DNA of 11,854 bases. Origin: Promethearchaeota archaeon. GTDB lineage: Archaea; Asgardarchaeota; Lokiarchaeia; Sigyniarchaeales; SOKP01. The translations under genes were made by a program, and so were the position numbers. A model generated the notes under the pieces. That model was not told the DNA's origin. It did no database searches and saw only the letters and a list, made by a program, of their open reading frames with translations. The stretch is from NCBI GenBank assembly GCA_048941015.1, contig JBHLNZ010000086.1, forward strand, positions 1-11,854, written 5' to 3'. Positions 5,164-10,962 of the stretch are shown in pieces (within the stretch, counting starts at the first letter, position 1; each line of letters opens with the position of its first letter).

Positions 5164-5499
5164 TTATTTTAAAATCATTTCTCCCTTATTAATTAGATAT
5201 AATAAATGGGAAGCATACATATTTTTATTACCAATATAGGAATACTCAACTTGATTTTCCTTTCTTTTCCTATAAATTGATTCAAAAATAAGCACATCCT
5301 GTCCTAAATTAATATTTTTTTTATAACTATGAATAATTAGATTATCAGAATAATATTCTACTCTTTTAAGATGATTTCGTGCATTATTAATTTCATTTTC
5401 TACTTCATTAGCGAATTTTTCTACTTTATCTTCAAAAACCACATTAATTTCGCTAAGGGAATTTAAATTTTGAATTTTATTCATATTTAACTTTTCCAT
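5164..5499 (-). CDS. Hypothetical protein (N-terminal helical/coiled-coil-like segment)
   Basis: 111-aa ATG ORF filling an otherwise empty gap, with a perfect SD AAGGAGGT 7 nt upstream. No family recognised. Confidence 0.7.
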   Translation of the reverse strand: MEKLNMNKIQNLNSLSEINVVFEDKVEKFANEVENEINNARNHLKRVEYYSDNLIIHSYKKNINLGQDVLIFESIYRKRKENQVEYSYIGNKNMYASHLLYLINKGEMILK

Positions 5500-9655: not shown

Positions 9656-10039
9656 GTGATAGAACGAGTGGAAGCGAGTACACCTGATTCATTGGATGAC
9701 CTCTTAAAGAAATTACTCGGTGCAATCCCTGAAGTCAAAGCTGCGGCAATAGTATCTGCTGAAGGGTTACCTATCGCATCTGCACTACCTCAAGGAGTAG
9801 ATGAAACCCGTATTGCTGCAATGACTGCCGCGCTTCTCTCATTATCTGAAAGAGCTATCATTGAGATGAATAAAGGTGATTTTGATCAGCTATATGTTAA
9901 AGGAAGCGATGGTTATTTATTAATTCTACAAGCAGGCCCAAATGCCGTATTAACAGTGTCCACTAGTAAAGATGTAAGATTAGGATTAATTTTATTAGAT
10001 TGTCGGAGAACATGTGAAAAGATTGCTCAATTAATATAA
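9656..10039 (+). CDS. Roadblock/LC7 domain protein (MglB/LAMTOR2-like, conserved type)
   Basis: AAAIVSAEGLPIASALP...RIAAMTAALLSLSERA...LYVKG.DGY.LI..AG.NAVL.V...LGLI is the classic roadblock/MglB signature. Start is GTG 9656 or GTG 9668; no N-terminal ATG in frame. Confidence 0.95.
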   Translation: MIERVEASTPDSLDDLLKKLLGAIPEVKAAAIVSAEGLPIASALPQGVDETRIAAMTAALLSLSERAIIEMNKGDFDQLYVKGSDGYLLILQAGPNAVLTVSTSKDVRLGLILLDCRRTCEKIAQLI

Positions 10040-10135
10040 ATGAACAGTTATTTTCATTAGTTAGATGTTAAAAAATCACAAATTATTAATTTTATGTTTC
10101 ATTTACTCATCCATCTAAGTCTCATTACTTTAACT

Positions 10136-10139
10136 GGTG
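10136..10139 (+). promoter_or_regulatory. Putative partial Shine-Dalgarno (GGTG) for rpo7
   Basis: GGTG 7 nt upstream of ATT 10147, in an otherwise G-poor stretch; matches part of the archaeal GGAGGTGA consensus. Confidence 0.45.
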
Positions 10140-10146
10140 TTAAATT

Positions 10147-10749
10147 ATTTTCAAACTATTTCAAATAAATGGAAAAATTGAGATCCCTCCATTTCTTTTT
10201 GACCAAGAAAAAAAAATAAGTGCTAGAATCATTCTTAGTGAAGATTATGAGGGGATTATCACTAAAGATTATGGATTTATTATAGCTATCGTCGATGTTA
10301 TTGACGTTGGACCTGGCATAATTATTCCCGGTAATGCTAATACCTTCCATGAAGTTGAATTTACGATATTAACCTTCAAGCCTGTTATTTCGGAGGTAGT
10401 TGAAGGAGATGTTGTAGAGATAGTTGATTTTGGTTCCTTTGTAAGGCTTGGTCCTTTAGATGGATTGGTTCATGTATCACAAATTTGTGATGATTATATT
10501 TCATATGAACAAGTAGGAAACCGCTTTATTGGAAAAGAGACAGGTAAAATTCTAGAGGTTAACGATCAAGTGAGAGCTAAAATTATAGCAGTCTCATTAG
10601 GTACAGGTAGAAGCGGTAAATTAGGATTAACTATGCGTCAGAGATTTTTAGGAAAAATGGAATGGATTGAAAATGATATTGAAGAAGAATATGCTGAAAA
10701 AGAACAAAAAGATGCCAAAAAACCTGAAGATGAAGAAAATGAAGAATAA
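10147..10749 (+). CDS. rpoE1: DNA-directed RNA polymerase subunit Rpo7 (E'; Rpb7 homolog), about 200 aa, putative ATT start
   Basis: Manual translation of the frame of ORF 10465..10749 is open back to TAA 10141: (I)IFKLFQINGKIEIPPFLFDQEKKISARIILSEDYEGIITKDYGFIIAIVDVIDVGPGIIIPGNANTFHEVEFTILTFKPVISEVVEGDVVEIVDFGSFVRLGPLDGLVHVSQICDD..., which is the Rpo7 N-domain plus S1 domain. Followed by spt4. Confidence 0.95.
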   Translation: MFKLFQINGKIEIPPFLFDQEKKISARIILSEDYEGIITKDYGFIIAIVDVIDVGPGIIIPGNANTFHEVEFTILTFKPVISEVVEGDVVEIVDFGSFVRLGPLDGLVHVSQICDDYISYEQVGNRFIGKETGKILEVNDQVRAKIIAVSLGTGRSGKLGLTMRQRFLGKMEWIENDIEEEYAEKEQKDAKKPEDEENEE

Positions 10750-10773: not shown

Positions 10774-10962
10774 ATGAAAGAAAAAGCTTGTAAAAATTGT
10801 CATTTGATAACAAAAAATGAATCTCTTTGCCCTAAATGTAAAACTCATTCTCTTTCAGAAGATTATACAGGAGAGGTTATTATTATTAAGCCTCAGGAAT
10901 CAAAATTTGCCGAATATTTAAAGATTCATTTTCCCGGTAAATATGCCTTAAGAGTACGTTAA
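10774..10962 (+). CDS. spt4: Transcription elongation factor Spt4 (RpoE'')
   Basis: KACKNCH...CPKC zinc ribbon, S.DYTG.VII..P..S..A..L....PGKYALRVR; directly downstream of rpoE1. Confidence 0.96.
   Translation: MKEKACKNCHLITKNESLCPKCKTHSLSEDYTGEVIIIKPQESKFAEYLKIHFPGKYALRVR

Follow-up and report, generated by a model that had tools for sequence, protein, structure and literature searches.

The rpo7 (rpoE′) gene of this Promethearchaeota genome raises the question of which codon begins translation of a core RNA polymerase subunit whose frame has no ATG, GTG or TTG near its conserved N terminus, and of whether such a start belongs to the gene or to the organism. The window, i.e. the whole stretch of DNA analysed, is a complete 11.9-kb contig (11,854 nucleotides) of a 3.59-Mb MAG with 29.4% G+C, an estimated completeness of 95% and an estimated contamination of 5%. 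ATH denotes ATT, ATC or ATA.

The start region of rpo7 and its conservation

Reading of the sequence agrees with the frame described in the earlier note. On the forward strand an in-frame TAA (10141-10143) is followed by ATT 10144, ATT 10147 and TTC AAA CTA TTT CAA ATA AAT GGA AAA ATT GAG ATC CCT CCA, and the earliest in-frame ATG, GTG or TTG is TTG 10465-10467, which is residue 108 counted from 10144, lies 106 codons 3′ of the rpo7 start and falls within the S1 domain. The other two frames across the region are closed by stops. Because the TAA closes the frame, one codon before ATT 10147 (10147-10149), no start is possible further upstream in it, and no canonical codon lies between that stop and the conserved N terminus. 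Translation from ATT 10147 gives (M)FKLFQINGKIEIPP, with IPP at residues 13-15 as had been noted, and a coding sequence of 200 codons plus TAA (10147-10749, forward strand). The frame read from 10144, of 201 codons, includes both Pfam domains, SHS2_Rpb7-N (PF03876; E 7.7e-10, 39.2 bits versus a cut-off of 24.8, residues 11-63, nucleotides 10174-10332) and S1 (PF00575; E 4.6e-11, residues 83-155, nucleotides 10390-10608); a start at TTG 10465 would cost all of SHS2 and the N-terminal third of S1.

The product is thus like the ATG-started archaeal Rpo7/RpoE′ proteins (of the eukaryotic Rpb7 family) in its Rpb7-type SHS2 N terminus, its C-terminal S1 domain, its MF/YKL...IPP pattern and its neighbour spt4 (rpoE″), which lies immediately 3′ on the forward strand (10774-10962; Pfam Spt4, E 2.2e-13) and starts with ATG; adjacency of rpoE′ and rpoE″ is the usual neighbourhood. 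A Roadblock/LC7 gene ends at 10039, 5′ of rpo7, and Rpo4 (PF03874) is encoded apart, on contig C109. There is a single rpo7 match in the MAG (estimated 95% complete); an intact second copy, which the earlier note had held would mark this one as decaying, was searched for across the genome and not found. By contrast with the ATG-started genes, rpo7 here has ATT behind a strong GGTG Shine-Dalgarno (SD) sequence, the species sampled from other families of the order having ATG or TTG apart from one with ATA.

The codon at the Met1 position was read across 103 species of this family and 12 from other families in the order, a tabulation that the earlier note had proposed. The relatives do not all have ATG: ATH occupies this position in 49 of the 103 family species, a recurrence that indicates a pattern beyond chance. 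In the genus of the window (g1), 33 of 40 species have ATH (28 ATT, 5 ATC) and 7 have ATG, while all 10 species sampled from six other genera (g13, g14, g16, g17, g18 and g19) have ATH. The corresponding figures are 1 of 5 in g12, 1 of 8 in g21, 3 of 26 in g22, 1 of 7 in g23 and 0 of 7 in g15 and g20, and ATG is predominant in six other genera of the family. Outside the family, ATH was found in 1 of the 12 species (ATA, in a sister pair of which the other member has ATG), the remainder having ATG or TTG. For 41 of the 49 ATH cases the upstream sequence examined has no in-frame canonical start; four ATH-type species have an in-frame GTG inside the SD sequence and four more an in-frame TTG upstream, and in those eight the GTG or TTG could be the real start. 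On a tree of full-length rpo7, the earliest-branching lineages of the genus all have ATT, and ATG arose at least four times within it, on separate nested and mostly well-supported branches.

The coding signal opens at the same codon. Within the genus, the differences at codon positions 1/2/3 are 0.17/0.11/0.54 over codons 2-51, versus 0.54/0.52/0.52 in the same frame upstream; across the family they are 0.38/0.24/0.57 over codons 2-12 alone, versus 0.61/0.57/0.61 upstream. Pairwise identity among genus members averages 83% over residues 2-106 and 93% over residues 107-170. The presence of periodicity 3′ of the ATH codon and its absence 5′ of it argue that the N-terminal half is translated, that it is under purifying selection and that coding begins at ATH.

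These observations bear on a reading in which ATT is an assembly error for ATG, or in which the gene is a pseudogene that yields no more than the S1 part, from TTG 10465. The estimated contamination of the MAG and the finding of just 94 amino acids by a caller limited to ATG, GTG and TTG lend it something. However, 49 species whose genomes were assembled independently have the same ATH codon, purifying selection acts on the N-terminal half, the position of the first canonical codon downstream ranges in relatives from +3 to +109 codons, and the genome search gave no other copy. An artefactual or decaying start is accordingly given a very small probability and is close to refuted.

The Shine-Dalgarno sequence and its apparent coupling to the start codon

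The SD core GGTG (10136-10139, forward strand) lies 7 nt before ATT 10147, as had been noted, and is complementary to the CACC of the 16S rRNA 3′ end. The 16S gene is unassembled in the MAG from which the window comes; the 3′ end, GGAUCACCUCCU, was taken from four members of the genus and contains CACC, which pairs with GGTG. In the genome, GGTG is most frequent at a distance of 7-8 nt upstream from the first ATG in long ORFs, and before first canonical starts genome-wide it occurs 44 times at spacer 7 and 30 times at spacer 8. The SD sequence of rpo7 is therefore complementary to the 16S 3′ end of genus members and stands at the spacing that the genome prefers. Within the window rpo7 is the sole gene with an ATH start behind an SD sequence. 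The window has 14 other stop-to-stop ORFs that reach 90 codons, and just one of them, 5164-5499 (reverse strand), has its first canonical start in register with an SD word, so that rpo7 is locally conspicuous for its strong SD.

The spacing also bears on which ATH codon is used. Initiation at ATT 10144 or at ATC 10183 (10183-10185) would likewise be at an ATH codon, and both have counterparts in public proteins, P0001 and P0002 beginning MIFKLF and P0003 beginning MPPFLF. ATT 10144, however, is only 4 nt from GGTG and so outside the 7-8 nt peak, and the codon that precedes the aligned start differs between relatives (GCA, ACA, TTC, GAA, AAA, ATT, TAA), which places the N terminus at the 10147 codon rather than at 10144. 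ATC 10183 has no GGTG in register, encodes the conserved Ile of the EIPP motif and is preceded by codons 2-12, which show coding periodicity. Initiation at either of these codons is considered improbable.

Annotation of the gene varies accordingly with the codons that are allowed. The earlier note's statement that automated annotation truncates the protein by 106 residues holds for callers restricted to ATG, GTG and TTG, which return a 94-residue ORF, i.e. an S1 fragment, and does not hold for the public calls, which among them use three different codons for rpo7. The public call on the same contig (P0003, 188 residues) corresponds to Met plus the translation of 10186-10746, with ATC 10183 as its start, and is probably 12 residues short, since codons 2-12, which lie upstream of it, show periodicity family-wide. 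On near-identical contigs the public calls start at the ATT equivalent to 10144, and in some relatives at an in-frame GTG inside the SD sequence. None of them matches the conserved start at the 10147 codon.

A further possibility is that ribosomes start at GTG 10137, within GGTG, or at ATG 10094, in another frame, and reach the rpo7 frame by programmed frameshifting or by termination and reinitiation. Both codons are present, ATG 10094 begins an ORF of 24 codons overlapping the start of rpo7, and in four relatives the GTG of the SD sequence is in frame; yet the 7 nt between GGTG and ATT are variable and hold no conserved slippery site, and in several species the upstream ATG is replaced by ATA, ATC or ATT, the ORF ranging from 2 to 45 codons in differing frames. 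Such a route seems highly unlikely. ATG 10094 was also considered as the start of an upstream ORF and was rejected, ATG, frame and length not being conserved.

That ATG lies in a conserved promoter-like element, AAAATCACAAATTATTAATTTTATG (10072-10096, forward strand), which is near-invariant in 20 aligned genus members. The 25-nt element is usually about 50 nt 5′ of the start codon, has variable surroundings and occurs as one exact copy in the genome. This element probably serves as the rpo7 promoter (BRE/TATA), in which case the leader would be some 25-30 nt long and would contain the SD sequence. Its conservation is seemingly stronger than a TATA box alone requires. No stable RNA structure beyond that of shuffled controls was found around the rpo7 start (z = -0.27).

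On the conservation of the codon, the onset of periodicity, the Met1 alignment and the preferred SD spacing, the proposal of the earlier note that Rpo7 starts at a non-canonical ATT is upheld: ATT 10147 is very probably the start of rpo7 translation (a probability of roughly 80%), in an intact gene found once in the genome.

Comparison of relatives suggests that codon and SD sequence are coupled. Of 113 orthologues with enough upstream sequence, 48 are of the ATH type and 65 have a canonical start; GGTG stands at spacer 6-8 in 45 of the former and 3 of the latter, raw counts that overstate the statistical strength because the genomes are related by descent. Two of the three ATH-type exceptions that lack GGTG have another SD word in register (AGGAG, GAGGT). 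The largest ATG-type genus has mostly GGTA where the ATH types have GGTG. In the genus of the window, each gain of ATG is accompanied by loss of GGTG (to AGCG, AGTG or GATA) or by its shift to spacer 10, and a sister pair in another genus consists of one member having ATA with GGTG and one having ATG without it. Species L053 has ATG with GGTG intact, a state that may be intermediate. An independent-pairs test on a tree of a 141-nt fragment gave three changes in the same direction and none in the opposite one (p ~0.25); with only four well-supported pairs it was not significant.

In two of the ATG types, L017 (G002:C12) and L055 (G134:C119), the start region is apparently duplicated (ATG TTT AAG GTG TTC TGC ATA A ATG TTT AAA), so that a short upstream ORF extends across the ATG of rpo7 and GGTG is at spacer 10.

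From these patterns we infer that a weak codon with a strong SD sequence is approximately interchangeable with a strong codon and a weaker SD sequence, the combination of weak with weak being hardly seen. As the lineages that changed ATT to ATG have mostly weakened or shifted their SD sequence, the comparison points to selection on the total initiation rate of rpo7 rather than on the identity of the codon itself.

Probable ATH starts across the genome and the family

An initial count of GGTG before every codon of long frames gave no signal even for ATG, in-frame coding GGTG swamping it, and the genome-wide counts were therefore limited to the 5′ start-less stretch of long ORFs. They used 2620 stop-to-stop ORFs that do not overlap and have 150 codons or more, and within each the in-frame codons that precede the first canonical start by 12 codons or more. 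GGTG at spacer 6-9 precedes 54 such positions, of which 30 are ATH (15 ATT, 6 ATC, 9 ATA), ATH making up 15% of all positions; at spacer 7 it precedes 19 of 879 ATH codons versus 4 of 4855 other codons. Of long ORFs picked solely for a 5′ start-less stretch of 40 codons or more there are 45; an ATH codon in register with an SD word occurs in 28 of these and with GGTG in 13, the figures for control codons of similar frequency (TTA, TAT, AAT) in the same ORFs being 6 and 2. First canonical starts have any SD word in 17% of cases and GGTG in 3.5%. SD words are thus far commoner at ATH than at canonical starts, which implies that ATH starts are much more SD-dependent than ordinary ones.

At least 30 long ORFs have their 5′ end marked by an ATH codon behind GGTG at spacer 7-8, among them that of aIF1. 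Three sampled genes have a Pfam domain that reaches upstream of their first canonical codon: it begins at residue 7 in a MinD/CbiA ATPase, whose first such codon is at +19, at residue 23 in an alpha/beta hydrolase (+86) and at residue 6 in FolE2 (+60). ATH codons 7-8 nt after GGTG are seen in C20:7584-8348 (-), encoding a MinD-like ATPase, in C91:66320-67078 (-), an alpha/beta hydrolase, in C29:25809-26765 (-), FolE2, and in C64:72854-73861 (+), a 336-codon ORF with 129 start-less codons. The aIF1/SUI1 frame (contig C101:18540-18842, reverse strand, locus L132) has no ATG, GTG or TTG between the upstream TGA and the zinc knuckle and opens with ATA AAG AGT ATT after the TGA, so that aIF1, which proofreads start codons, seems to be translated from an ATH codon of its own (ATA or ATT).

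The habit extends beyond this genome. In 800 kb of a complete genome from a mostly ATG-type genus of the family, GGTG at spacer 7 precedes 6 of 277 ATH codons versus 4 of 2346 others; in 800 kb of G032, from another family of the order, there were only two ATH codons with GGTG at this spacer, few events in all. On this evidence, the ATH start of rpo7 looks like one instance of genome- and family-wide loose start-codon use rather than a switch specific to rpo7.

The initiator tRNA appears ordinary. Located by a pattern search for an initiator anticodon arm, its gene (contig C10:11613-11733, forward strand) has A1:U72, three G:C pairs in the anticodon stem (GGG/CCC), the anticodon CAU and an encoded CCA; the same search found no initiator-type anticodon arm with another anticodon in the genome. 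The T arm of the initiator gene is interrupted by an intron of ~33 nt, and the gene was missed by both other searches: ARAGORN, run with and without introns, gave 16-19 tRNAs, none with CAU, and the Rfam tRNA search gave 23 matches with no initiator. ARAGORN also reported a tRNA-Sec (anticodon TCA), and a TCA anticodon loop on contig C119 (~65081, minus-strand count) was taken as the same gene; this would imply selenocysteine use in the genome.

Initiation at rpo7 may then proceed as follows. GGUG would pair with CACC at the 3′ end of 16S rRNA, with the 7-nt spacing found before ordinary starts, and this anchoring would put AUU 10147 in the P site, where the ordinary Met-tRNAi (CAU) would read AUU despite a mismatch at the third position, as in bacterial initiation at AUU. 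The protein would then begin Met-Phe-Lys-Leu. Across the genome and the family, AUU, AUC and AUA would act as starts mainly behind a strong SD sequence, and for rpo7 the weak codon and the strong SD would balance one another.

Relation to known systems and wider meaning

Established AUU start codons include those of Escherichia coli infC, which encodes IF3, and pcnB. The infC product itself discriminates against AUU, giving a feedback loop, and infC/IF3 in bacteria, together with genes of poor start context that answer to eIF1 in eukaryotes, are the models for a reading in which rpo7 has a gene-specific regulatory device, the stringency of start-codon selection tuning Rpo7 synthesis, e.g. via aIF1 levels. 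The earlier note had suggested such an infC-like dependence for the RNA polymerase stalk. The likeness to infC and pcnB lies in the use of AUU or AUA behind an SD sequence, with an ordinary initiator tRNA and with an efficiency below that of AUG. By contrast with infC, the rpo7 product is by its domains an RNA polymerase subunit and not its own start-codon discriminator; to our knowledge Rpo7 has no role in start-codon choice, and aIF1 is a separate gene on contig C101. The setting is also archaeal, with aIF1 and aIF2 and no IF3, and the codon swaps with ATG, so that the strict codon conservation of infC is not seen: ATG has replaced ATH at least four times in the genus and dominates six other genera.

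A regulatory role would fit the retention of ATH in most of the genus (33 of 40 species) and in all 10 species sampled from six other genera, and, as aIF1 has no canonical start before its zinc knuckle, its level could set the output of all ATH-started genes. In Staphylococcus aureus, AUA and AUU starts give about 10% of the output of AUG, and one responds to growth medium (PMC13009471). Against this stand the lack of an evident feedback loop, the switching to ATG on at least 4-6 occasions in the genus, mostly with a matching change in SD strength, the dominance of ATG in six other genera, the lack of RNA structure around the start (z = -0.27) and the occurrence of the ATH-with-GGTG habit in dozens of unrelated genes. 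The stalk partner rpo4, checked for an odd start, has ordinary ATG codons. A device specific to rpo7 is consequently judged unlikely, and the stringency claim of the earlier note is not supported.

A more general version of the idea is that the AUH starts might form a translational regulon set by aIF1, which, itself AUH-started, would be autoregulated; low aIF1 would lead to a joint rise in the products, including Rpo7. This is a long shot. If true, it would tie start-codon stringency to transcription capacity, and would be an archaeal counterpart of IF3/infC and eIF1 start-context control in the closest archaeal relatives of eukaryotes.

The reading preferred here, of an ATT start at 10147 as part of a broader habit, has published parallels in bacteria. 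In S. aureus, AUU or AUA starts closely preceded by extended SD motifs occur in cvfC1, ccpN and citZ, and infC has an AUA start behind a strong SD sequence (PMC13009471); these resemble the present case in needing a strong, well-spaced SD sequence and in being conserved among relatives (PMC13009471). There, however, a few bacterial genes are concerned and the starts are proven by Ribo-Ret and reporters (PMC13009471), whereas here dozens of archaeal genes are concerned on comparative evidence alone. In Asgard archaea, an ATT start has been proposed for the AtubA tubulin of a Kariarchaeaceae MAG, where it is called 'rare' in a methods section (PMC13394414). As for rpo7, the deposited protein is N-terminally short, and the conserved N terminus is recovered by starting at an upstream ATT that is plausibly spaced from the ribosome-binding site; by contrast with the present analysis, a single gene is concerned, with neither a conservation analysis nor a genome-wide count (PMC13394414). 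In the literature on non-canonical start codons in Asgard archaea no systematic report was found, AtubA being the only published ATT start found, and in ribosome profiling of Haloferax volcanii near-cognate putative sites were set aside. What is new here is the apparent family-wide exchange of start-codon strength against SD strength, and that a core RNA polymerase subunit appears to be affected.

For annotation, the consequence is that start miscalling affects dozens of genes per genome in the family, and the Asgard protein sets used in studies of eukaryogenesis, structure prediction and phylogenomics therefore hold N-terminally truncated proteins. For the biology of the family, the presence of a weak start on an essential RNA polymerase subunit in about half of some 100 species suggests that AUH is routinely tolerated when accompanied by a strong SD sequence. 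The repeated exchange between ATT with GGTG and ATG with a weaker SD sequence is a natural experiment on the trade-off between the two elements, and has a bearing on how strict start-codon selection evolved toward eukaryotes.
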